64,000 nucleotides of DNA from Candidatus Omnitrophota bacterium. Lineage in GTDB: Bacteria; Omnitrophota; Gorgyraeia; Gorgyraeales; Gorgyraeaceae. Each line of letters opens with the position of its first letter. Position 1 is the stretch's first letter. Location of the stretch: contig JBHPHU010000002.1 of assembly GCA_042571405.1 (NCBI GenBank), forward strand, positions 2,787-66,786, written 5' to 3'. This document shows positions 5,732 to 60,388 of the stretch, in pieces. A program made the translations under genes and the position numbers. Under the pieces are notes generated by a model. The model saw only the letters and a list, made by a program, of their open reading frames with translations, was not told the DNA's origin and did not search any database.

Positions 5732-6664
5732 ATGAGAGAAAAAGTCCTTATAGTTAAATTAGGGTTTACAGAGACTATAGACGCGAGCATTTCTACGGAT
5801 AGTGTTAGTCTGGGCGATGTCTTTAGGACTACGGCGATATTGCACCCATTCCAGAAACATGATGTAACGTGGCTAACTACAAAAGAAGCCGCACCTCTTT
5901 TAGTAAACAATCCATTTATAGATAGATTACTGGTGTACGATCTTACCTCAGTTCTTCAGCTTCAGGCAGAGCATTTTGATGTGGTTATAAATTTGGAAAA
6001 ACTTCCTGGTGTGTGCGCTTTGACAGATTCTATACATGCATGGAGGAGATATGGCTTTAGGTTTGACCCAAAGAAAGGCACATCAGAGGCGTATGAACAT
6101 TCATATGAGGTAGTGGCAAATTCAGAAGACCCGAAGTTACGCAAGAAGATAAAAAAGAACTGGGTAGAGATGCTTTATGGTATGATGGACAAAAAATGGC
6201 AGGGTCAGGGGTATGTATTAGGCTATAAGTCAAAGGTTAAAGAGAAGTTTGATATAGGGTTTAATATCAAGGTAGGGAAACGATGGCCTAATAAGGCATG
6301 GCCGGAAGAGAACTGGAAGAGATTAGAGGAGCTGACAAGCAAGAAGTTTTCTGTTACGCATCAGCAGTCCTTGAATGACATAGCAGGATATCTTGACTGG
6401 CTTAATAGCTGCAGACTTATAGTTACAAATGATTCGCTGGGATTGCATTTGAGCATAGCATTGAAAAAGAAGATAATCGCGCTCTTTGGTCCCACTTCAG
6501 AAAAAGAGATTTTTCTTTTTAACAGAGGAGTGGTGGTAAAGCCTGAGAAAAAGCTGAAATGCATACCTTGTTTTAATACGCGGTGTAAATATGAAAAAAG
6601 TTGTATGCATTATATTAAGCCAGAGACAGTATATAGAGATATTGTTAGATTATTGAAACAATAG
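5732..6664 (+). CDS. Family 9 glycosyltransferase (ADP-heptose:LPS heptosyltransferase-like)
   Basis: GT9-type C-terminal motif TNDSLGLHLSIALKKKIIALFGPTS, with family-typical length and layout. Confidence 0.8.
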   Translation: MREKVLIVKLGFTETIDASISTDSVSLGDVFRTTAILHPFQKHDVTWLTTKEAAPLLVNNPFIDRLLVYDLTSVLQLQAEHFDVVINLEKLPGVCALTDSIHAWRRYGFRFDPKKGTSEAYEHSYEVVANSEDPKLRKKIKKNWVEMLYGMMDKKWQGQGYVLGYKSKVKEKFDIGFNIKVGKRWPNKAWPEENWKRLEELTSKKFSVTHQQSLNDIAGYLDWLNSCRLIVTNDSLGLHLSIALKKKIIALFGPTSEKEIFLFNRGVVVKPEKKLKCIPCFNTRCKYEKSCMHYIKPETVYRDIVRLLKQ

Positions 6665-6676
6665 AGGAGGCTGAAG

Positions 6677-7690
6677 GTGGTAAAGATAGGTATAGTTGGG
6701 TGCGGTTATTGGGGACCTAATTTAATAAGGAATTTTTTTCAAGCCAAAGATTCAGAGCTGTGCGCGCTTTGCGATACGAATGAAAAGAGATTAAAAGAGA
6801 TGAAAGAGACCTATTTCGTAAAGAAGAGCTTTACGGATTATAAGTCCATGCTTAAGGATCCTGAAATAGAGGCTGTTGTTATTGCTACTCCTCCAAAGAC
6901 ACATTATTCGCTTGTGCAAGAGGCACTTTCCAGCAACAAGCATGTCTTGGTCGAAAAACCACTGGCCTTCAACACAAAAGAGTCAAAAGATCTAGTAGAA
7001 TTAGCCAAGACCAAAAAGCGGATCTTAATGGTGGGGCATACATTTGAATTTAATCCTGCAGTGATTAAAATGAAGGAGTGCATCACCAGTGGCGAGTTAG
7101 GAAAGATATCTTATATATATTCCACCAGGGTAAATCTAGGCCGGGTGCAGGAGAATATAAACGCGATCTGGAGTCTTGCCCCTCATGACGTATCCATAAT
7201 CCACTTTATACTGGGATCTATGCCTGTCAGAGTCAGGGCTTATGGCAGTTCACATATAAACAAGGGTATAGAGGATGTAGTTTTTATCAACCTGGAATTT
7301 AAAGATAATGTCATGGCGCATATACACGTGAGCTGGCTGGATCCGAGCAAGATAAGAAAGATGACAGTGGTCGGCTCTAAAAAGATGCTTATATATGATG
7401 ATATTGACAATGAGGGAAAGATAAAGATATACGATAAGGGCGTGGATAGATTTTCTCTGGAAGATAGTTCTTACGGGGTATATCAGACAAAACTCAGAGC
7501 CGGAGATATTACTATGCCAAAGTTGCGGCTCTATGAGCCATTGCGCAGGGAATGCGAACACTTCATAGAGTGTATTATAAATAACAAAAACCCTGATACT
7601 GATGGTGAGAACGGTTTAAGGGTGGTGAGTGTTTTAGAGGCAGCGCAGATGTCTTTGGAACAAGACGGTAAGGTGGTGGAAATAAAATGA
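6677..7690 (+). CDS. Gfo/Idh/MocA-family NAD-dependent sugar oxidoreductase (WbpB-like)
   Basis: N-terminal Rossmann motif KIGIVGCGYWG and EKPLA motif. First gene of an oxidoreductase-acetyltransferase-aminotransferase triad. GTG start. Confidence 0.8.
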   Translation: MVKIGIVGCGYWGPNLIRNFFQAKDSELCALCDTNEKRLKEMKETYFVKKSFTDYKSMLKDPEIEAVVIATPPKTHYSLVQEALSSNKHVLVEKPLAFNTKESKDLVELAKTKKRILMVGHTFEFNPAVIKMKECITSGELGKISYIYSTRVNLGRVQENINAIWSLAPHDVSIIHFILGSMPVRVRAYGSSHINKGIEDVVFINLEFKDNVMAHIHVSWLDPSKIRKMTVVGSKKMLIYDDIDNEGKIKIYDKGVDRFSLEDSSYGVYQTKLRAGDITMPKLRLYEPLRRECEHFIECIINNKNPDTDGENGLRVVSVLEAAQMSLEQDGKVVEIK

Positions 7691-8319
7691 AGAATTATAA
7701 GGTATATCCTAATGTGACTATCGGAGAGGGAGCTGTAATAGGCGACTATGTTCTTATCGGAGTGCCGCCTCGCGGAAAAAAAGAAGGCGAGCTAAAGACT
7801 GTCATAGGTAAGAATGCCGTGATTCGTTCGCACAGTGTTATCTATGCGGGAAACAAGATAGGCGATAATTTTGAAACAGGTCACTACGCTTTTCTGCGAG
7901 AAGAAAATGTAGTAGGGAATAATGTGCGCATAGGCACTTCTTCAGCCGTGCAGCATTGTGTTCGCATAGAGGATAACGTGAGCATGCACACAGGCGTGTT
8001 TGTTCCGGAGTACAGTATACTCGAAGAGGGTTGCTGGCTCGGGCCGCGTGTTGTGCTTACTAATACGCCGCATCCTGTCTGTCCTAGGGCAAAAGAGTGT
8101 TTAAAAAAAGGCTGCAAGGTAGGTAGATTTGCGCAGGTAGGGGCAAACGCAACATTGTTACCGCATATATCTATAGGTGAGTATTCACTTATAGGCGCAG
8201 GTTCAGTCGTTACAAAAGATATCCCTGCTAAAAAAGTAGCAGCAGGTAATCCTGCTAAGATAATAAAGGAGGTAGGAGATCTAAGGTGTCGTTATGACGA
8301 AGCATTTTCACCTTATTGA
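7687..8319 (+). CDS. Hexapeptide-repeat sugar N-acetyltransferase (WbpD-like)
   Basis: LbH repeats run through the whole protein. ATGA overlap with the upstream oxidoreductase. Confidence 0.8.
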   Translation: MKNYKVYPNVTIGEGAVIGDYVLIGVPPRGKKEGELKTVIGKNAVIRSHSVIYAGNKIGDNFETGHYAFLREENVVGNNVRIGTSSAVQHCVRIEDNVSMHTGVFVPEYSILEEGCWLGPRVVLTNTPHPVCPRAKECLKKGCKVGRFAQVGANATLLPHISIGEYSLIGAGSVVTKDIPAKKVAAGNPAKIIKEVGDLRCRYDEAFSPY

Positions 8320-8333
8320 TCTTTTAAGAGCTT

Positions 8334-9437
8334 ATGGGACCTATTCCGTTAGTAGATTTAAAGCTGCAGTATAAGACAATAGAATCAGAGATAAAAAAGG
8401 CCATAGAGGATATCTTTGCGCAAGGTGTCTTTATCTCCGGCAAGCCGCTTGTGGAGTTTGAAAAGGGATTTTCTAAATTTTGCGGAACTAAATATGCGGT
8501 TGGAGTTAGTTCCGGCACGTCAGCGCTCTATTTGGCTTTATTGGCCTGTAATGTTGGAAAAGGAGATGAAGTCATTACAGTGCCTAATACCTTTATTGCC
8601 ACTACAGAAGCAATAACTGCGGCAGGCGCAAGGCCGGTTTTCGTAGATATCGATCCTGAAGATTATACAATAGATGTTTCGAAAATAAAAAAGGCGATTA
8701 GCAAAAAGACCAAAGCAATTATACCAGTGCATATCTACGGTCATCTAGCTAATATGGATGCGATCCTTTCACTTGCCAAAGAACATGGATTAAAAGTAAT
8801 AGAAGACGCAGCCCAATCTCATGGGGCAGAGCACAAAGGTAAAAGGGCAGGTTCTCTGGGTGACGCAGGTTGTTTTAGTTTTTATCCCGGGAAGAATTTA
8901 GGCGCATATGGAGACGCGGGCGCGCTAACTACCAATGACGCGGCCATAGCAGAAAAGGTGAGTCTCTTGAGAAATCATGGCCGTAAGGAAAAATACAGCC
9001 ATATCATAGAGGGATTCAATAATCGCTTGGACACGCTTCAGGCAAAGCTGCTCAGTGTAAAATTAGCCTATTTAGAAGACTGGAATAAAAGCCGCAGGCA
9101 GGTTGCTCAGTGGTATAGGAAGTATTTAAAAGATCTATCACTAAAACTACCTAAAGAAGACAAAGATTACCTGGATGTATATCATCTTTTTGTGATCGAG
9201 ACTGACGATAGGGATGGTTTACTTAGCCATCTAAAGGAAAAAGGGATTTTTGCAGGTATACATTATCCTATACCGCTGCACCTTCAAGAGGCATATAAGT
9301 ATCTTGGCTATAAACAGGGCGATTTTCCTGTTACAGAACATTCGAGTAAAAGAATACTCTCTTTACCCATTTTTCCCGAGTTAGAAGAGAGCAGTGTAGA
9401 GTTTATTTGTAAAACCATAAAGGAATTTATAAGTTAA
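8334..9437 (+). CDS. DegT-family sugar aminotransferase (WbpE-like)
   Basis: DegT signatures (DAAQSHG, SFYPGKNLG with PLP-binding Lys). Paralogous to 1085..2191. Confidence 0.9.
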   Translation: MGPIPLVDLKLQYKTIESEIKKAIEDIFAQGVFISGKPLVEFEKGFSKFCGTKYAVGVSSGTSALYLALLACNVGKGDEVITVPNTFIATTEAITAAGARPVFVDIDPEDYTIDVSKIKKAISKKTKAIIPVHIYGHLANMDAILSLAKEHGLKVIEDAAQSHGAEHKGKRAGSLGDAGCFSFYPGKNLGAYGDAGALTTNDAAIAEKVSLLRNHGRKEKYSHIIEGFNNRLDTLQAKLLSVKLAYLEDWNKSRRQVAQWYRKYLKDLSLKLPKEDKDYLDVYHLFVIETDDRDGLLSHLKEKGIFAGIHYPIPLHLQEAYKYLGYKQGDFPVTEHSSKRILSLPIFPELEESSVEFICKTIKEFIS

Positions 9438-9634
9438 CCCAAAAGGAGACCTGTTCGCTCAGCTGAAAATTTCCCCCTTACGGGGTCGTCTTTTATTCCG
9501 CATTTTGGCGGGACTGAAAAAACTCTACCCACACCATAGGTGTGGGTGTCGAACAGTTTTCAGCCTTTTAAAAACCGCCAAAATACTCCATAAAAGACTA
9601 AATTTTCAATTCGCTCTCAGGTCTCCTTTTGGGT
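9437..9634. repeat. 198-nt long imperfect hairpin / MITE-like element with 17-bp perfect terminal inverted repeats
   Basis: ACCCAAAAGGAGACCTG (9437-9453) pairs with CAGGTCTCCTTTTGGGT (9618-9634). Internal arms also pair (gtcttttat/ataaaagac, cattttggcgg/ccgccaaaat). Central hairpin is cccacacc-atagg-tgtgggtg. Confidence 0.8.
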
Positions 9635-9653
9635 TATAATAGCTACACTATAG

Positions 9654-9811
9654 TTTTGTACCACCCAGCTCAGTACCTTTGGAGGCATCGTTGGACCGAG
9701 CGGGCACGGTGTCCGCCGAAGGCGGACGAGCGAGGGGCAACAATGAGCAAAAATTTCCTCGCTGGGGAAATTTTTGTGTCCTCCAAAGGTACTGAGCTGG
9801 GTGGTGCAAAA
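9654..9811. repeat. 158-nt element closed by a 32-bp inverted repeat (one T/G mismatch) with two internal hairpins
   Basis: TTTTGTACCACCCAGCTCAGTACCTTTGGAGG (9654-9685) pairs with its complement at 9780-9811. Inner hairpins are gtccgcc-gaa-ggcggac (9711-9727) and aaaaatttcc/ggaaattttt (9749-9775). Confidence 0.85.
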
Positions 9812-9848
9812 GCGTTACGCGATGTTGAAAACATTGCATTTATAGAAA

Positions 9849-10913
9849 ATGGATAAGCTTAGAATAGACAGTCATAAGTTAATGTATCACATTGATAGAG
9901 TCGAGAAATGGCAGAAAAATAGACAGGTCTCGCCTATCTACCTTGAGATTGCGCCTTCCGGGGGATGTAACCATCGCTGTGTCTTTTGCGCATTGGATTA
10001 TATAGGATACAAGCCGCAGTTTCTGGACACAGGGGCATTGATGAGGGCGGTTAAAGATGCTGCCCGCTGCGGAGTAAAGAGCATAATGTATGCGGGTGAG
10101 GGCGAACCACTTTTGCATAAAGACATAGCAGATATTGTAAATCGTACAAAGAGATTGGGTATTGATGTTGCCATTACTACGAACGGCGTATTTTTAAATG
10201 ATAAGGTAATAAAGCGTTGCCTCAAAGACCTTTCATGGATAAGGATAAGTTTTAACGCAGCCAGCGCAAAGACATATGAGAAGGTTCATAGATGTCCGAA
10301 GGGTGATTTTGAAAAGACACTTTCTAATCTTAGGCAGGCTGTAGCTTATAAGCGTAAACATAAGTTAGATTGCGTGATCGGCGTACAAATGCTTTTGATC
10401 CCGGAAAATAGAAACGAGGCGCTTAAGCTGGCAAGACTTTTAAAAAAGATAGGCGTGGATTATTTGACAATAAAACCTTTTTCCAAACATCCGATGAGCC
10501 ATTGCAATATGGACAAGGCCTTCAGGTACGGCAGTTTTTTATATCTGGAAAAGGAGCTTGAGAAAATAGCCACAAAAGATTTTGCGATAATATTCCGTTC
10601 GCATACGATGAAGAAGCTGAAGGAAGGTAGATTTTACAGGCATTGTCTGGGGTTGCCTTTTTGGGCTTACATAGACGCGGGAGGCGATGTTTATGCCTGC
10701 AGCGCGTACTTAGGAAATAAGAAATTTATATACGGAAATATCCGTGGACATAGATTTTCAGATATTATAAAGAGCAAAAGACGCAGAGACATTTTAAAAA
10801 TGGCTGCGACAAAACTGGATACGAGCAAGTGCCGCGAGATATGCAGGCTCGATGAGATAAACAGGTATCTCTGGGAACTGAAAAACCCTTCGCCGCATGT
10901 GAATTTTATATAA
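9849..10913 (+). CDS. Radical SAM enzyme with C-terminal SPASM/twitch-like Cys-rich domain
   Basis: CNHRCVFC (CxxxCxxC), GEGEPLL, and C-terminal C..PF...I...G.V..C ... CREIC. Paralog of 15504..16607; both end in HVNFI. Confidence 0.85.
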   Translation: MDKLRIDSHKLMYHIDRVEKWQKNRQVSPIYLEIAPSGGCNHRCVFCALDYIGYKPQFLDTGALMRAVKDAARCGVKSIMYAGEGEPLLHKDIADIVNRTKRLGIDVAITTNGVFLNDKVIKRCLKDLSWIRISFNAASAKTYEKVHRCPKGDFEKTLSNLRQAVAYKRKHKLDCVIGVQMLLIPENRNEALKLARLLKKIGVDYLTIKPFSKHPMSHCNMDKAFRYGSFLYLEKELEKIATKDFAIIFRSHTMKKLKEGRFYRHCLGLPFWAYIDAGGDVYACSAYLGNKKFIYGNIRGHRFSDIIKSKRRRDILKMAATKLDTSKCREICRLDEINRYLWELKNPSPHVNFI

Positions 10914-10927
10914 TTGTATGATAAAAA

Positions 10928-10976
10928 GAAACCACAGAGGACACAGAGATTTTTTAGAATTTTTCTCTGTGACCTC
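10928..10976 (+). repeat. 'CACAGAG' hairpin repeat, copy A
   Basis: GAAACCACAGAGGACACAGAG, then an A/T loop, then TCTCTGTGACCTC. Begins 15 nt after the radical-SAM gene stop. Confidence 0.8.
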
Positions 10977-11131
10977 AAGATAAATGTATTTTATGACACA
11001 ATATAAGTAAATTGAAGATATAGAAAAAATACAATAAAACAAATTTTATAGATTTATAAGTTTTTAGGATTTTATTTTATAAGGTAAGCATCAATAGTGT
11101 TGTTATAAGAAGAAGCTATTTAAATAGAAGA

Positions 11132-11175
11132 GAACACAGAGAAAACCATAAAAACCTCTGTGCTCTCTGTGGTTT
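11132..11175 (-). repeat. 'CACAGAG' hairpin repeat, copy B (inverted relative to A)
   Basis: GAACACAGAG..CCTCTGTGCTCTCTGTGGTTT is the reverse complement of the copy A/C core. Convergent with copy A across about 155 bp of AT-rich spacer. Confidence 0.8.
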
Positions 11176-11180
11176 CATTT

Positions 11181-16607: not shown

Positions 16608-16654
16608 CTGTACAGACGCGTTGTCTGCCGGAGGCAGACAACGCGTCTGTACAG
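16608..16654. repeat. 22-bp-stem perfect palindrome ('CTGTACAGACGCG' family, copy 1); probable terminator or REP-like element
   Basis: CTGTACAGACGCGTTGTCTGCC-gga-GGCAGACAACGCGTCTGTACAG starts at the base immediately after the stop codon of 15504..16607. No T-tract follows. Confidence 0.85.
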
Positions 16655-19162: not shown

Positions 19163-19948
19163 ATGGCAGATGATAGGTTAGCTTTGTCTGTGGTGACGAT
19201 TGCGTACAATGAAGCACATAGAATAGGTGATTGCCTTAAGAGTACGCAGGGTTGGGCAGATGAGCATATAGTGGTGGATGATTTTAGCTCTGATAAGACA
19301 GTGGAGATTACAAAAAAATTTACAGATAAGGTTTTTCAGAGAAAGATGGATGTCGAGGGCGTGCATCGAAACTGGGCCTACCAGAAGGCAAAGAACGAAT
19401 GGGTGCTGAGCCTGGATGCAGATGAGACTGTTACAGAAGAGTTGAAACAGGAGATAAAAGATGCTATAAAGGGTGATGCGGGATTTAATGCCTATAGTAT
19501 ACCGCTAAGGACATATATCGGGGATTATTGGGTGCAGCATGGCGGCTGGTATCCTGCTGGAAAGCTCCGTCTTTTTAAGAGATCAAGGTTTAAGTACGAG
19601 GAGGTTGGCGTGCATCCAAGGATAATTCTCGACGGTAAATGCGGGCATCTGACAAAGGATATTATACATAGGGGTTATGTGGATTTTTCAGACCTTTTTT
19701 CTGGACTTAATCGCCAGACAGATCTTGAGGCAGAGAAGTGGTTTAATGAGAAACGAAAGATCGGTGGTTTAAAGATGTTCCGGAAGGCCTGTGACAGGTT
19801 TTTCCGCAGCTATGTTAGAAAAAAAGGATATAAAGACGGAGTAGTAGGCTTTGTTATAGCAACTCATGGCGCAATGTATCAAATTTTAAGTTTCGCAAAA
19901 TACTGGGAAAAGCAAAGAAACCACAGAGAGCACAGAGAAATGTTATAG
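19163..19948 (+). CDS. Family 2 glycosyltransferase
   Basis: LSVVTIAYNE...VVDDFSSD...LDADE (DxD). The last ~11 codons (KQRNHREHREML) are encoded by the CACAGAG repeat. Confidence 0.85.
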   Translation: MADDRLALSVVTIAYNEAHRIGDCLKSTQGWADEHIVVDDFSSDKTVEITKKFTDKVFQRKMDVEGVHRNWAYQKAKNEWVLSLDADETVTEELKQEIKDAIKGDAGFNAYSIPLRTYIGDYWVQHGGWYPAGKLRLFKRSRFKYEEVGVHPRIILDGKCGHLTKDIIHRGYVDFSDLFSGLNRQTDLEAEKWFNEKRKIGGLKMFRKACDRFFRSYVRKKGYKDGVVGFVIATHGAMYQILSFAKYWEKQRNHREHREML

Positions 19949-19971
19949 TTTAAAAAAATCTCTGTGGTCTC
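19917..19971 (+). repeat. 'CACAGAG' hairpin repeat, copy C
   Basis: GAAACCACAGAGAGCACAGAG...CTCTGTGGTCTC. Overlaps the 3' end and stop codon of the GT2 gene. Confidence 0.8.
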
Positions 19972-19976
19972 GTATT

Positions 19977-20118
19977 TTGCTTAAATGCGAATATCGAAAT
20001 CCGAATCTCGAAACAAATTCGAAATTGAAAATTCTAAATCTTAAATACTATGTTTAGAATTTTAGATTTAGAATTTATAATTTGTTTCGAATTTCGATAT
20101 TCGAATTTCGGATTTAAA
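19977..20118. repeat. ~140-bp 'CGAAAT' long palindromic element, copy a
   Basis: Left arm is ttaaatgcgaatatcgaaatccgaatctcgaaacaaattcgaaatt. Right arm is aatttgtttcgaatttcgatattcgaatttcggatttaa. The right half closely matches copies b and c. Confidence 0.85.
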
Positions 20119-20130
20119 CATATATTATTA

Positions 20131-20178
20131 GAGCACACAGAGAAAAACTATAAAAAACCTCTGCGTACTCTGTGGTAT
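20131..20178 (-). repeat. 'CACAGAG' hairpin repeat, copy D (inverted relative to C)
   Basis: GAGCACACAGAG...CCTCTGCGTACTCTGTGGTAT. Convergent with copy C; the pair brackets CGAAAT element a. Confidence 0.75.
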
Positions 20179-20217
20179 ATTTTTTTGACAATACGGAAGA
20201 CAACGAAAGGAGAAAAA

Positions 20218-21258
20218 ATGAAAATATTGGTTACTGGCGGTGCCGGGCTTGTGGGCTCTCATACCGCGGAATATTATTCCAAAAAGGGCGACGAGGTTAT
20301 CGTGCTGGATAATTTAATGAGGTCCAATTTATTTGGATACAACAAAGAGAGCGTGGAGTTTAACTGGAATTATCTGGGAGAACTCGAGAATGTAAAGCGG
20401 ATAAAGGGAGATGTGAGGGAAGAAAAGGATGTGATGAAGGCGCTTGGCAGCGGAGTAGATGTGGTCATACATACTGCAGGTCAGCCTGGAGTGCCTCTTT
20501 CCATGAAGATTCCAAGAGAGGACTTTAGCATAAATGCCTATGGCACACTTAATGTTCTCGAATGCCTCAGGCAGGTATCTCCAAAGGCCGCATTTGTGTA
20601 TTGCTCCACAAATAAAATTTACGGAGAGAATGTGGATAGTATTAGCCTGGAAGAAGAGGAAACAAGATACAGGTATAAAACTAAAAAAGGTGTCCCTGAG
20701 ACGCTATCTATGGATTTGACCGGACATACCCCATACGGCGCTTCAAAATACACAGGCGATATCTATACGCAGGAATACGGACATCTCTACGGTATGAAGA
20801 CAGCGGTATTTCGCATGTCGTGTATCTACGGCACCAGGCAGTTTGGTTTTGAGGATCAAGGTTGGGTGGCGTGGTTTGTCATAGCGAACCTGACAGGTCA
20901 GCCCATAGTTGTTTATGGCGACGGTAAGCAGGTAAGGGATTTATTGTACGTGGATGATTTAGTAGAGGCCTATGATAAGTTTATACACGGCGAGGTAAGG
21001 CATGATGTATTTAATATTGGCGGCGGGCCAAGGAATACCACTTCACTGCTGGAGTTTATAGCGTTAATAGAAAATAAAACAGGTATTAAGTTCAGGAAAG
21101 TGGATTATAAAGAGTGGCGGCCAAGCGACCAGAAGGTATACATATCAGATATTAGCAAGGTTTCGAAGGCGCTCAGCTGGAAACCAAAGATTACGCCTGA
21201 GAAAGGGTTGGAAAAATTGGTCGAATGGGTAGGCGGCAATACGAAATACTTTATATGA
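20218..21258 (+). CDS. NAD-dependent sugar epimerase/dehydratase (SDR family)
   Basis: ILVTGGAGLVGSH and YGASKYTGD (YxxxK). AAAGGAG RBS precedes ATG 20218. The track's 5' extension (20050-20217) is read-through of repeats. Confidence 0.88.
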   Translation: MKILVTGGAGLVGSHTAEYYSKKGDEVIVLDNLMRSNLFGYNKESVEFNWNYLGELENVKRIKGDVREEKDVMKALGSGVDVVIHTAGQPGVPLSMKIPREDFSINAYGTLNVLECLRQVSPKAAFVYCSTNKIYGENVDSISLEEEETRYRYKTKKGVPETLSMDLTGHTPYGASKYTGDIYTQEYGHLYGMKTAVFRMSCIYGTRQFGFEDQGWVAWFVIANLTGQPIVVYGDGKQVRDLLYVDDLVEAYDKFIHGEVRHDVFNIGGGPRNTTSLLEFIALIENKTGIKFRKVDYKEWRPSDQKVYISDISKVSKALSWKPKITPEKGLEKLVEWVGGNTKYFI

Positions 21259-35006: not shown

Positions 35007-36284
35007 ATGAATAAAGTAGTTGTAGTTGGACTTGGAAGGAGCGGAGTAGGGGCTGCGAAACTTTTGGCAGGTCGGGGGGATACTGTTTTAATCACAGAGA
35101 TAAAAGATACTCCTGTCGTAAGGGATACTGTAAAAGAACTGATCAAGGATGGTATTATTGAGCAAGGCAATGTTGAACTAGGCTGTCATACGGAGAGATT
35201 TATGAAAGATAGTGATCTCATAGTGGTCAGTCCTGGCGCAAAGTTGGCGGAGAATAACGGCATACCTGTAATAAGTGAGTTGGAGCTAGCCTATTCAATG
35301 TGCCCCGCGCCTATTATTGCTGTAACGGGTACTAGCGGGAAGACTACTGTTACTACTCTGATAGGTCAGATGCTTGTCTCTTTGGGCAGGGATGTGATTG
35401 TGTGCGGTAATATCGGTAATCCCCTGAGCGGAGAGATAAAGAGGATAAAAAAGGATTCTATTGTTGTAGTCGAGGTTAGCTCTTTTCAGCTCGAGAGGAC
35501 AAGGAGTTTTAGGCCAAAGACAAGTATTATTTTAAATATATCCGAGAATCATCTCGACAGGCACAGTGATATGGAGGAATACGTTTCTGCAAAACTAAGG
35601 ATATTTTCTAATCAAGATGCGGATGATGTATTATTTTTAAATGCAATGGATAAATTATCGAAGAAGATTTCCGATAAATCTAAGTGCAGGGTGGAGTTTT
35701 TTGACAAATATAAGGATTTCAGAAAAAGATATCACATAGAGAATGAGAATTTTCTAGCAGCCATGTCTGTGGCATCCTTGGAAGGTGTTAGCGAGGATGT
35801 CATGCTGAAGGTCATCTCGGAATTTAAAGGCATAGAGCACAGGCTGGAGCACGTATCTACGATCAATGGCGTAGATTTTATCAATGATTCAAAGGCCACC
35901 ACTGTCTCTAGCGTAGAGTGGGCATTGAAATCCCTCGATGAGAAGATCATCCTGATCATGGGAGGCAGATATAAAGGAGGAGATTTCAGCAGGCTAAAGG
36001 ACTTTGTTAATAAAAAAGTAAATTATATTATTGCCATAGGAGAGGCAAGGCCGCAGATTAAAAAAGGCCTTGCGGGGACAAAAGAAATTTTCGAAGAAGA
36101 GGATCTAAAAAAAGCAGTCTGTGCCGCGTTTAAAAAGGCAGATAAGGGAGACAAGATTTTACTTTCTCCTGGATGCTCAAGTTTCGACATGTTTAAAAAC
36201 TATGAGGACCGCGGCAGGGTTTTTAAAGAGATCGTACTGTCATTGCGAGGCAGCCGCCTACGGCTGCCTCGCAATGATACTTAG
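35007..36284 (+). CDS. murD: UDP-N-acetylmuramoylalanine--D-glutamate ligase
   Basis: VVGLGRSG and VTGTSGKTTV. The C-terminal 14 aa (SLRGSRLRLPRNDT) are encoded by a perfect 16-bp hairpin. Confidence 0.93.
   Translation: MNKVVVVGLGRSGVGAAKLLAGRGDTVLITEIKDTPVVRDTVKELIKDGIIEQGNVELGCHTERFMKDSDLIVVSPGAKLAENNGIPVISELELAYSMCPAPIIAVTGTSGKTTVTTLIGQMLVSLGRDVIVCGNIGNPLSGEIKRIKKDSIVVVEVSSFQLERTRSFRPKTSIILNISENHLDRHSDMEEYVSAKLRIFSNQDADDVLFLNAMDKLSKKISDKSKCRVEFFDKYKDFRKRYHIENENFLAAMSVASLEGVSEDVMLKVISEFKGIEHRLEHVSTINGVDFINDSKATTVSSVEWALKSLDEKIILIMGGRYKGGDFSRLKDFVNKKVNYIIAIGEARPQIKKGLAGTKEIFEEEDLKKAVCAAFKKADKGDKILLSPGCSSFDMFKNYEDRGRVFKEIVLSLRGSRLRLPRNDT
36241..36276. repeat. Perfect 16-bp-stem hairpin embedded in the last codons of murD
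   Basis: CATTGCGAGGCAGCCG-ccta-CGGCTGCCTCGCAATG. Ends 5 nt before the murD stop codon and 11 nt before the ftsW ATG. Confidence 0.85.
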
Positions 36285-44608: not shown

Positions 44609-44630
44609 TTGGTTGTATGGAATTTCAATG

Positions 44631-44674
44631 TTCTCGACTTCGCTCGAACAATATTCTTCGAGCGAAGTCGAGAA
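44631..44674. repeat. 'TTCTCGACTTCGCTCGAA' palindromic element, copy 2 (perfect 18-bp stem)
   Basis: TTCTCGACTTCGCTCGAA-caatatt-(c)TTCGAGCGAAGTCGAGAA lies 23 nt after the proC stop. Confidence 0.85.
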
Positions 44675-44698
44675 GAATTAATTTAAAGGAGAAAGAAG

Positions 44699-49780: not shown

Positions 49781-49824
49781 CCCCTGTACAGACGCGGTGT
49801 CTAGACACCGCGTCTGTACAGGGG
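49781..49824. repeat. 44-nt perfect palindrome ('CTGTACAGACGCG' family, copy 2)
   Basis: CCCCTGTACAGACGCGGTGTCT|AGACACCGCGTCTGTACAGGGG. Shares the core CTGTACAGACGCG.TGTCT with 16608-16654. Confidence 0.85.
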
Positions 49825-57841: not shown

Positions 57842-58267
57842 ATGGGGATTGAAAAAGGGTATAACTGGAAAGTCATGCCTGTGCTATTAGCAATAGTAGT
57901 ATTATATGCAAATATACTCTATTCTGCCCCAGAGTTTAATCTGCGCCCTCTGCTTACATTTTCTATGGAAGGAGACAACGAGAGGAATGAGGAAGAGAAG
58001 TTATTTATACAGCTTGTAGGCGAATCTCCTGTGCTTATGGATGTAGGAACGGATAGGGCAAGCTTTCTTTTTAAGGTTAATAAAATTTTACCCAAATCAA
58101 AGCTTTATGGTATAGATAAACACTCTATTAGTGAAAAGATTAAAATTGAAGCTGCTGGACATGGGATAGCTTTGACGGATCGTAGAGATTATGAAGATTT
58201 ATTAGGGGCTCCAGACCAAAAAGACAAATATGATGTAGTAACTCTTATTGCACCTATGAGCTTTTGT

Positions 58268-59710
58268 CAAATGTTGTGGATGAAGCCTCTAAGCAAAGCA
58301 TCCTTTCAAGTTCCATTTAAGCAGTTATCTCCTCAAGTTTTTCAGATTCCTTAACCATCAAACCATCCTTAAATTTCACACCTTCCCAGACCTGTTTTAT
58401 TTTTCTATGGCCTCTTAATCTGGACCATCGTTTTTGAGCAGATAGAATAAGCTTAAAGACCATTGTTAGTGTTGCGATCCTTGATCCACATCCTTTAGTC
58501 TTTACGGTTCTTAAGCGTACAGTAGAGAACGTGGACTCGATAACATTTGTGCTTCTAAGATGCACCCATTGCTGAGCAGGGTAATTATAAAAGCTAAGGA
58601 GTTTCTCACGATTATTCCTCAAACAGTCAACAGCCTTTGGGTATTTAGCTTCAAATTCTTCTATGAATATATTGAAGGCAATGTCCGCATCTTTTTTTGT
58701 GGGAGCCAGGTATATATTATGAATCATTGTCTTGGCTCTACCTTGAAGACTTTGAGGCAGTTTATCCAAGGCATTGGCTGTTTTATGGATCCAGCATAAT
58801 TGATGATTTGTCTCAGGGAATTCTTCTTGTAAGGCTGCCCAGAAGCCCAAAGAGCCGTCTCCTATTGATAGTTTTGGCCCTTTGGATAATCCCATGCGTT
58901 TTAACTCTCTCATAATAGACTGCCAACTCAACTTTGATTCCCTGAAGCCATCTACTATGGCCACTATCTCTTTTTTCTCTTTTTTACCGTCAGTCCTTGC
59001 GCCTATTATTACTAAGACGCATTGCCTGTCGTCATCAAGCCTCACGTTGAAATATATGCCATCTACCCACCAGTATACGTATTCTGTTTTAGAAAGGTCT
59101 CTATTTATCCATTCGTTATATTCCTTTTCCCAGATTTGTTTTAAGCGGACTATGTTTTGAGCTGATAAGCCTATAACCTGTTTTCCAAGGATAGATTCTA
59201 AAGCTTCTGTAAAGTCTCCAGTGGATATGCCTTTTAAGTATAGTACCGGCAAAAGCTCGTCTATATTCCTTGTTCTCCTTAAGTACGGCGGGATTATGCT
59301 GCTTTTGAAGCGTTTCTCTTTATGTTTAGATAATATCCTATCGTCAACCCTTGGAGTTCTTACTTCAAGCTGGCCTGCGCCTGTAATAATTCTTCTGGAT
59401 TTATTGTGCCCGTTACGCACTACCTGCCTATAGCCGTTATCATCCAGTATATACTGATACCCTTCCAGGAATAAATCCACTTCGATCTCTAATGCTTTTT
59501 TCAGCATCTCTTTGGCGCCTTCCCTTGCGATGTCATCCAGGGATTTTTTAACGATACTTTCCTCTGGACTTACCTTGAATCTAGAGGTATTATTATTCAT
59601 AGAGTATCCTTTCTTTTATGCGTGTCGCCTGACACGCTGGTTTGTGTTGTCTTATTTGAAAGGATACTCTTTTTCTATACTCTTTTCAAGCCTCCAATCC
59701 ACAACATTCG
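58268..59710 (-). mobile_element. IS256-family insertion sequence (~1.44 kb)
   Basis: Imperfect terminal inverted repeats: cAAATGTTGTGGATgaaGcCT (58268-) against the reverse complement of ...AGcCTccAATCCACAACATTcg (-59710). One transposase ORF fills the element. Confidence 0.85.
58317..59600 (-). CDS. IS256-family (Mutator-type) DDE transposase
   Basis: 427 aa. N-terminal ...DDIAREGAKEMLKKALEIEVDLFLE... and overall architecture are typical of the Transposase_mut family. The only credible minus-strand gene in the window. Confidence 0.9.
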   Translation of the reverse strand: MNNNTSRFKVSPEESIVKKSLDDIAREGAKEMLKKALEIEVDLFLEGYQYILDDNGYRQVVRNGHNKSRRIITGAGQLEVRTPRVDDRILSKHKEKRFKSSIIPPYLRRTRNIDELLPVLYLKGISTGDFTEALESILGKQVIGLSAQNIVRLKQIWEKEYNEWINRDLSKTEYVYWWVDGIYFNVRLDDDRQCVLVIIGARTDGKKEKKEIVAIVDGFRESKLSWQSIMRELKRMGLSKGPKLSIGDGSLGFWAALQEEFPETNHQLCWIHKTANALDKLPQSLQGRAKTMIHNIYLAPTKKDADIAFNIFIEEFEAKYPKAVDCLRNNREKLLSFYNYPAQQWVHLRSTNVIESTFSTVRLRTVKTKGCGSRIATLTMVFKLILSAQKRWSRLRGHRKIKQVWEGVKFKDGLMVKESEKLEEITA

Positions 59711-60388
59711 ATTATACCTCTTATGAAAAAGTAACCGAGTTTAAGTTTGTCGGGAATCCCGAAAAAGTAGAATCTAGCTATATGTTACCTGCATTTGAAG
59801 TATCAAAACAATATGAAAGGAATGGTCTTGGGCAGATTCTATTAGCTAAGCTTTGTGAGACAAGCATGAATGATTCAGACATAGGAGACATAATTGTTCT
59901 GGCCGAGGGACTTAGTCCTATAGGCAGGGATTACTTCAGGTCAAAGACAAAGACTGAAACCACTGGTTTTACAATTGAAAAAGGAGGGAAAGAGAGAGCA
60001 TGTAATCGCGTTGTAGATAGGATAGAAGCAGAGAGATTACTTAAACTCGCCTTAAGCAGACAGGATGAATCTAATAGGTTAGAAAAAGTCATTAATCGAA
60101 AAGTGACTAGCAAAACAATAGATTTTAATTTATAAAACTTGTATCTTCCTAACTCACCCAATCCCTCTATCATAATACCATGTCCTCTAACTACGATGAG
60201 CTTGTGTTCTTCTGGAAGGGTAAGGCGATAGTCTATGCCATTATGGCTAAGGATGGGCTCTGGTATGCTGTAGAGGTTAGCCAAGGACGGTTCTCGTGCC
60301 AATCTCAGACCTGTCTCCCAGCCATAATTATCTAACATCTCAGTCTACTCTAATTTAGCCAATATAATTTGAATCCTACAAATATGTA

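Follow-up and report, generated by a model that had tools for sequence, protein, structure and literature searches.

The window, i.e., the whole 64-kb stretch of DNA that was analysed, is occupied by a long gene cluster that lies nearly all on the + strand and is made up of glycosyltransferases, sugar-modifying enzymes and radical-SAM enzymes. Within this cluster, Pfam matches identify a GFO/IDH/MocA oxidoreductase (6677-7690), a hexapeptide acetyltransferase (7687-8319) and a DegT-type aminotransferase (8334-9437, stop codon TAA at 9435-9437), all encoded on the + strand. They are followed by a radical-SAM/SPASM gene (9849-10913, +), whose product matches NCBI MFC1620757.1 (Candidatus Omnitrophota bacterium) at 100% identity. 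We take the oxidoreductase/acetyltransferase/aminotransferase trio to resemble the enzymes that make 2,3-diacetamido sugars.

The gap between the DegT and radical-SAM genes measures 411 bases and contains what appear to be two hairpin-forming, non-coding insertions, in the following named E1 and E2. E1 is a 202-bp inverted-repeat element (9435-9636, +) and E2 an orphan inverted-repeat element of 158 bp (9654-9811, +); an unstranded spacer of 17 nt (9637-9653), read from the sequence, lies between them. Cutting both elements out would leave a spacer of about 54 nt, i.e., TAA + TAATAGCTACACTATAG + GCGTTACGCG...AGAAA. Neither a sigma-70-like promoter nor an intrinsic terminator was found on the + strand within the gap, and its sole terminator-like site with a T-run is located on the - strand in the central module of E1. 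The 64-kb window holds no further copy of E1 or E2.

Structure and folding of E1 and E2

E1 is bounded by the terminal inverted repeats TAACCCAAAAGGAGACCTG (left, 9435-9453, +) and CAGGTCTCCTTTTGGGTTA (right, 9618-9636, +), which match perfectly at 19/19 bp and show termini of the form ACCCAAAAGGAGACCTG. An earlier note on this DNA had described perfect termini of 17 bp (9437-9453 / 9618-9634). These are exact, and the perfect repeat is actually 19 bp long, since the flanking TA..TA is itself palindromic. The same note let E1 start at the last base of the upstream stop codon, and the DegT TAA indeed falls within the left arm. The element proper spans about 9437/9438 to 9633/9634, with flanks that can be read as TA, TTA or TTAA. 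Further inside, we find a subterminal imperfect inverted repeat of 33 nt with 76% pairing (9488-9520 / 9566-9598, +), a small hairpin of 12 nt (9474-9485) and a central module of 41 nt (9513-9553, -). The latter contributes a hairpin (9527-9547), which together with an A-run (9517-9522) is intrinsic-terminator-like when read on the - strand. That is, the internally paired segments ascribed to E1 beforehand are present and can be assigned to the imperfect repeat, the small hairpin and the central hairpin.

E2 is closed by two arms of 32 nt (9654-9685 / 9780-9811) that form 31 Watson-Crick pairs and one T-G pair (9659/9806), in agreement with the 32-bp stem with a single U-G position proposed before. 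The two internal hairpins that had been reported were recovered as well, namely hairpin A (GTCCGCC GAA GGCGGAC, 9711-9727, +) and hairpin B (about 9747-9777, +), which comprises 11 perfect pairs (9748-9758 / 9766-9776) and, on the + strand, becomes longer through wobble pairs. No target-site duplication is visible around E2 (..CTATAG before and GCGTTA.. after the element). For the terminal arms of E1 and E2, only 0.00-0.02 chance occurrences are expected in the window.

When folded as RNA, E1 reaches a minimum free energy of -90.0 kcal/mol (z -11.9) and E2 of -99.5 kcal/mol (z -12.4), and in both cases 0/200 shuffles were as good. The two elements were said to be unrelated, which is borne out by their best local alignment: it lies within the shuffle range, with 96/300 shuffles aligning at least as well. 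A kinship via the common AAAATTTCC motif was likewise rejected, as the motif does not rise above shuffles. We also rejected a reading as integron attC sites, because the ends of E1 (AGTTAAC.. / ..GTTATAA) and of E2 misfit RYYYAAC ... GTTRRRY; neither an integron integrase nor a cassette array is present within the window.

The open reading frames in E1 and E2 have lengths of 23-75 aa only and are without homologs, i.e., there is no transposase gene. The palindromy of E2 generates an artefact frame of 75 aa (9629-9856, +) and its mirror image of 63 aa (9648-9839, -); both had been anticipated as artefacts, and both are present without protein relatives. All E1 and E2 frames, concatenated and compared with 5.8 billion clustered proteins, gave nothing at E up to 1, and HMMER, run in full with the 75-aa frame against 1.84 billion representatives, returned no match. 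The two spurious frames are thus flagged here and should stay out of gene annotation.

E1-like sequences in other genomes

We scanned the terminal 18-mer of E1, AACCCAAAAGGAGACCTG, exactly against 185,579 species genomes (one genome per species) and against JGI metagenomes. The scan, which detects identical words only and misses diverged copies, yielded 8 and 18 loci, respectively. An opposing arm is found at only one of these, L006 (CAZWYD010000022.1, labelled uncultured Planctomycetia). At the remaining 25 loci, no opposing arm is present at <=4 mismatches, so that these were rejected as E1 copies; the number of such single-arm matches is about that expected by chance. The search for further copies, which the earlier note had proposed as a check, did therefore find E1 again at an unrelated locus.

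The homologous sequence in L006 (6128-6280 plus 7582-7685) has the same boundaries as E1. Identity amounts to 97.6% for E1 positions 1-41, 100% for positions 50-78 and 95.4% for positions 138-202. The homology begins exactly with TTAACCC and ends exactly with GGGTTA, and the flanks beyond are unrelated. Directly at these edges the window reads TTAA..TTAT and L006 reads TTAA..TTAA, such that the two copies fit a duplication of TA, TTA or TTAA; this difference counts against the overall explanation given below. Both arms of the subterminal repeat are kept in L006. The interior is arranged differently, i.e., an 82-nt hairpin occupies the position of the small hairpin (12 nt in the window), and the 41-nt central module is missing, with an IS481-family insertion sequence (IS) in its place. 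The L006 copy has a minus-strand gene on either side and precedes the start codon of an aldolase by 60 nt, and its orientation to local transcription is therefore opposite to that in the window.

As judged from these alignments, E1 is probably a member of a mobile, non-coding, MITE-like inverted-repeat family, because identical boundaries at unrelated loci of different genomes, a modular interior and the lack of coding capacity are what a mobile element predicts. The case for mobility is a minimal one, as the known E1 copies are two, one per genome and at unrelated loci, and this small number counts against the overall explanation.

The IS inside the L006 copy encodes, like the known family, a transposase with HTH and rve domains (396 aa), whose best match is NF033577 at 208 bits, slightly under the NCBIfam cut-off of 224. 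Given that E1-type ends enclose this transposase gene, the region 6128-7685 of L006 resembles an IS of 1,558 bp with TTAA on either side. E1 might thus be an internal-deletion derivative of this unit, with the IS481-family transposase as its own and the E1 ends as the IS ends. We consider such a descent extremely improbable, since the transposase core comes with inverted ends of its own (GTATAAACTGGTAACATAGGT... and ...ACCTATGTTTCAGTTGCACA), located at 6281 and 7581 within E1-like sequence, that bear no resemblance to the E1 termini. These ends recur, conserved and in the same place, at six further loci (L036-L041), where the transposases are 67-72% identical to that of L006 and the sequence just outside is unrelated. 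When L006 is included, the left end is found at the identical position in 5 loci and the right end in 7. Aligning the six related IS copies hence led us to reject 6128-7685 as a full-length parent IS of E1; differing from E1 in its ends, the IS481-family IS is not the parent of E1. The core with its own conserved ends inside E1-like halves is rather a nested IS, and L006 is, on this reading of the alignments, a second E1-family copy that was itself hit by an IS.

In two of the six loci (L039 and L040), the IS481-family IS adjoins or sits within hairpin-type repeats (CCCTCTCCCCGGAGGGGAGA). Along with L006, this hints that the IS may prefer palindromic targets.

The window itself carries an IS256-family IS at about 58255-59723, with imperfect terminal repeats (58255-58281 / 59697-59723) and a transposase gene on the minus strand (58317-59600; Transposase_mut, E 2.6e-58), which is the only long minus-strand gene of the window. 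It was rejected as a possible parent due to unrelated ends. That is, no cognate autonomous IS with matching ends was found, the ends of the IS481-family IS of L006 and of the IS256-family IS of the window both being unrelated.

For E2, a 22-mer gave no exact match in JGI metagenomes. Words of E1 and E2 had no exact match in viral contigs, and a distant blastn search against plasmids and phages returned nothing. Like that of the 18-mer, these exact-word scans pass over diverged copies. Overall, E2 was seen in one copy only across the window, JGI metagenomes, viral contigs, plasmids, phages and two protein searches.

The junction in related gene clusters

The closest relatives encode a radical-SAM protein of 75-77% identity. 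In the related loci L013-L016, L011 and L042, a heptosyltransferase-like Glyco_transf_9 gene directly precedes the radical-SAM gene: 11 nt separate the two in L013-L016, they overlap in L042, and in L011 the same Glyco_transf_9 C-terminus lies just upstream of the radical-SAM gene. In the window, the Glyco_transf_9 gene ends at 6664, and the corresponding junction of L013 is found at 5990-6000. Because the relatives join Glyco_transf_9 straight to radical-SAM, the 3.2-kb region 6665-9848 is an insertion specific to this lineage. It contains the three-gene block (6677-9437, +), which is missing from the closest relatives, with E1 and E2 at its right edge. On the left, the block is joined across a tight gap of 12 nt with AGGAGG, and all of the extra non-coding DNA is found at the right joint.

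The elements had been placed at a junction between the aminotransferase operon and the radical-SAM block, and this junction proves to be the right edge of a block that the relatives lack. The locus comparison in relatives, likewise suggested beforehand, showed neither element at the Glyco_transf_9/radical-SAM junction of L013-L016, L011 and L042; these relatives are also without the three-gene block. None of the relatives compared has DegT next to the radical-SAM gene, so that only the older Glyco_transf_9 junction is comparable. The block suggests that this glycan cluster exchanges gene blocks, and the locus dates a local rearrangement in which a three-gene amino-sugar block entered a radical-SAM glycan cluster that is conserved in other respects.

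Most probably, E2 is a second MITE-like insertion of putative mobility that stems from another source of higher GC content. Its GC content of 14 points above that of the window, the lack of a second copy in the sets searched and the lack of a direct repeat count against the overall explanation. The proposal of two MITEs inserted side by side thus holds for E1, which has a second copy with exact ends elsewhere, and does not carry over to E2, for which neither a duplication nor a second copy was found. As a serious alternative, albeit one we hold to be doubtful, E2 could be a local palindrome that was formed at the novel joint when the three-gene block arrived, by fold-back/template-switch replication or by illegitimate recombination. 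The missing target-site duplication, the absence of other copies in anything searched and the position at the right boundary of the lineage-specific 3.2-kb insertion are all in line with such an event, and the near-perfect arms (31/32) indicate that E2 is young. Yet no sequence of the window matches the arms or the interior of E2 as a possible template, and its GC content of 55% suggests foreign rather than local sequence. Furthermore, a single fold-back event leaves the perfect hairpins nested inside E2 unexplained.

The earlier note had also offered E1 and E2 as structured RNAs that insulate or regulate the junction. Phrased as a hypothesis, E1, E2 or both would be selected cis-acting mRNA structures (processing site, stabiliser or insulator) that set the expression of the aminotransferase relative to that of the radical-SAM block. 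The folds are very stable even when the whole gap is folded together, and the position is internal to an operon, in a gap without a promoter or terminator on the + strand. In addition, where E2 pairs imperfectly, the + strand has G-U wobbles and the - strand has mismatches, which is reflected in the energies (-99.5 vs -90.0 kcal/mol). This wobble signal is contradicted by the cUUCGg loop of hairpin A, which exists on the - strand only, and E1 folds better on the - strand (-104.3 vs -90.0 kcal/mol). Uninterrupted stems of 19-32 bp are, moreover, typical for terminal repeats at the DNA level and not for evolved RNAs. When searched with Rfam 15, the whole window showed no family at gathering threshold; at E up to 10, matches were at chance level only (MIR5998 with 15.9 bits vs 180, Fusobacteriales-1 with 19.9 vs 52.1). 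Together with the absence of both elements from all relatives examined and with the second E1 copy, which is found at an unrelated locus in antisense to the local genes, these results speak against the regulatory reading. Nothing supports a conserved regulatory RNA for E1 or E2, and we rate selected cis-acting structures as unlikely. It is very unlikely in our view that E2, possibly along with E1, is a lineage-specific functional RNA for dsRNA processing or insulation at the block joint, or that the inverted-repeat elements serve as recombination handles for swaps of surface-polysaccharide blocks in Omnitrophota.

Beside E1 and E2, several other inverted repeats were observed. A third inverted-repeat family is represented by two AT-rich intergenic elements (10924-11180 and 19914-20176), each of which carries the module AAACCACAGAGnnCACAGAGnTTTTTTAnnnTTTTTCTCTGTG (about 45 nt; AAACCACAGAG..CACAGAG..TTTTTCTCTGTG) in inverted orientation at its two termini. 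The first of these fills the gap between the radical-SAM and E1_dh genes; since these flanking genes overlap in L011, L013 and L042, this element is also an insertion. An AT-rich palindrome with arms of 56-68 nt (19978-20120) overlaps the predicted start of ORF 20050..21258. Related REP-like perfect palindromes with 22-bp arms (CTGTACAGACGCGnTGTCT...) form an intergenic pair at 16608-16654 and 49781-49824, and a palindrome with 32-nt arms and no spacer lies at 44621-44684. Finally, TCATTGCGAGG recurs in palindromic intergenic elements of the window (36240-36277) and of a related Omnitrophota contig (L012, 2493-2608 and 8027-8175), and may be a repeat family common to the group.

Interpretation and comparison with known repeat elements

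Weighing the above, we think that the spacer is probably made up of two independent non-coding inverted-repeat DNA insertions, of which E1 is MITE-like, and that neither of them is a conserved RNA gene. This explanation is supported by the observation that intergenic inverted-repeat elements are common in the window as well as in related Omnitrophota clusters. E1 would be a small, modular, non-autonomous element with terminal (17-19 bp) as well as subterminal inverted repeats and with internal hairpins that can be exchanged. It would have inserted at a T-T-A-A site that holds the DegT stop codon; as the insertion site contains this stop codon, the protein would have been left intact. E1 and E2 would have entered the lineage after, or together with, the three-gene sugar-modification block, presumably moved by a transposase supplied in trans.

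Since the flanking genes are all on the + strand and the gap shows no match to a + strand promoter or terminator, E1 and E2 are probably co-transcribed with the cluster in a polycistronic message. Once transcribed, they would form RNA duplexes of 19-32 bp, i.e., potential substrates of RNase III, whose cutting would incidentally uncouple the upstream from the downstream message in stability. In Correia elements, RNase III is reported to cleave where terminal repeats are paired (PMC10969869), and by analogy such an mRNA-processing side effect of E1 and E2 is plausible.

The E1 family is apparently undescribed, and a full-text literature search brought up no paper in which Omnitrophota and MITEs occur together. 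The identity of 95-100% between the E1 arms of an Omnitrophota and a Planctomycetia metagenome-assembled genome points to recent horizontal movement, provided that the genomes are labelled correctly. Beyond these points, E1 and E2 would be ordinary genome litter.

To our knowledge, E1 and E2 have no sequence similarity to the Correia, ERIC or QMITE2 consensus sequences. REP units and REPINs differ from them in that E1 and E2 exceed REP units by far in length and in that their arms are not themselves palindromes; a RAYT-type gene was not noticed in the window. In common with REP/REPIN, one copy of the E1 family is itself an IS target.

For the comparison with MITEs, we relied on the features compiled in PMC10969869. 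Both E1 and E2 are of small size, within the tens to a few hundred bp given for MITEs, have terminal inverted repeats and contain no transposase gene. MITEs are typically AT-rich and carry flanking direct repeats (PMC10969869), whereas the GC contents of E1 (43.6%) and E2 (55.1%) both exceed that of the window (40.7%), and GC-rich E2 is without a target duplication. Correia elements of Neisseria, ERIC of enterobacteria and QMITE2 of Coxiella (PMC10969869) occur in tens to hundreds of copies, compared with two known copies of E1 and one of E2, and unlike for MITEs of this type no cognate IS was identified for E1 and E2. On the other hand, the elements are alike in being non-coding, 150-200 bp long and bounded by terminal inverted repeats of 17-32 bp, and the TA-containing flanks of Correia elements recur in E1. 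E1 and E2 are also likewise intergenic within co-directional gene clusters, and their predicted transcripts are, as for Correia, ERIC and QMITE2, very stable stem-loops.
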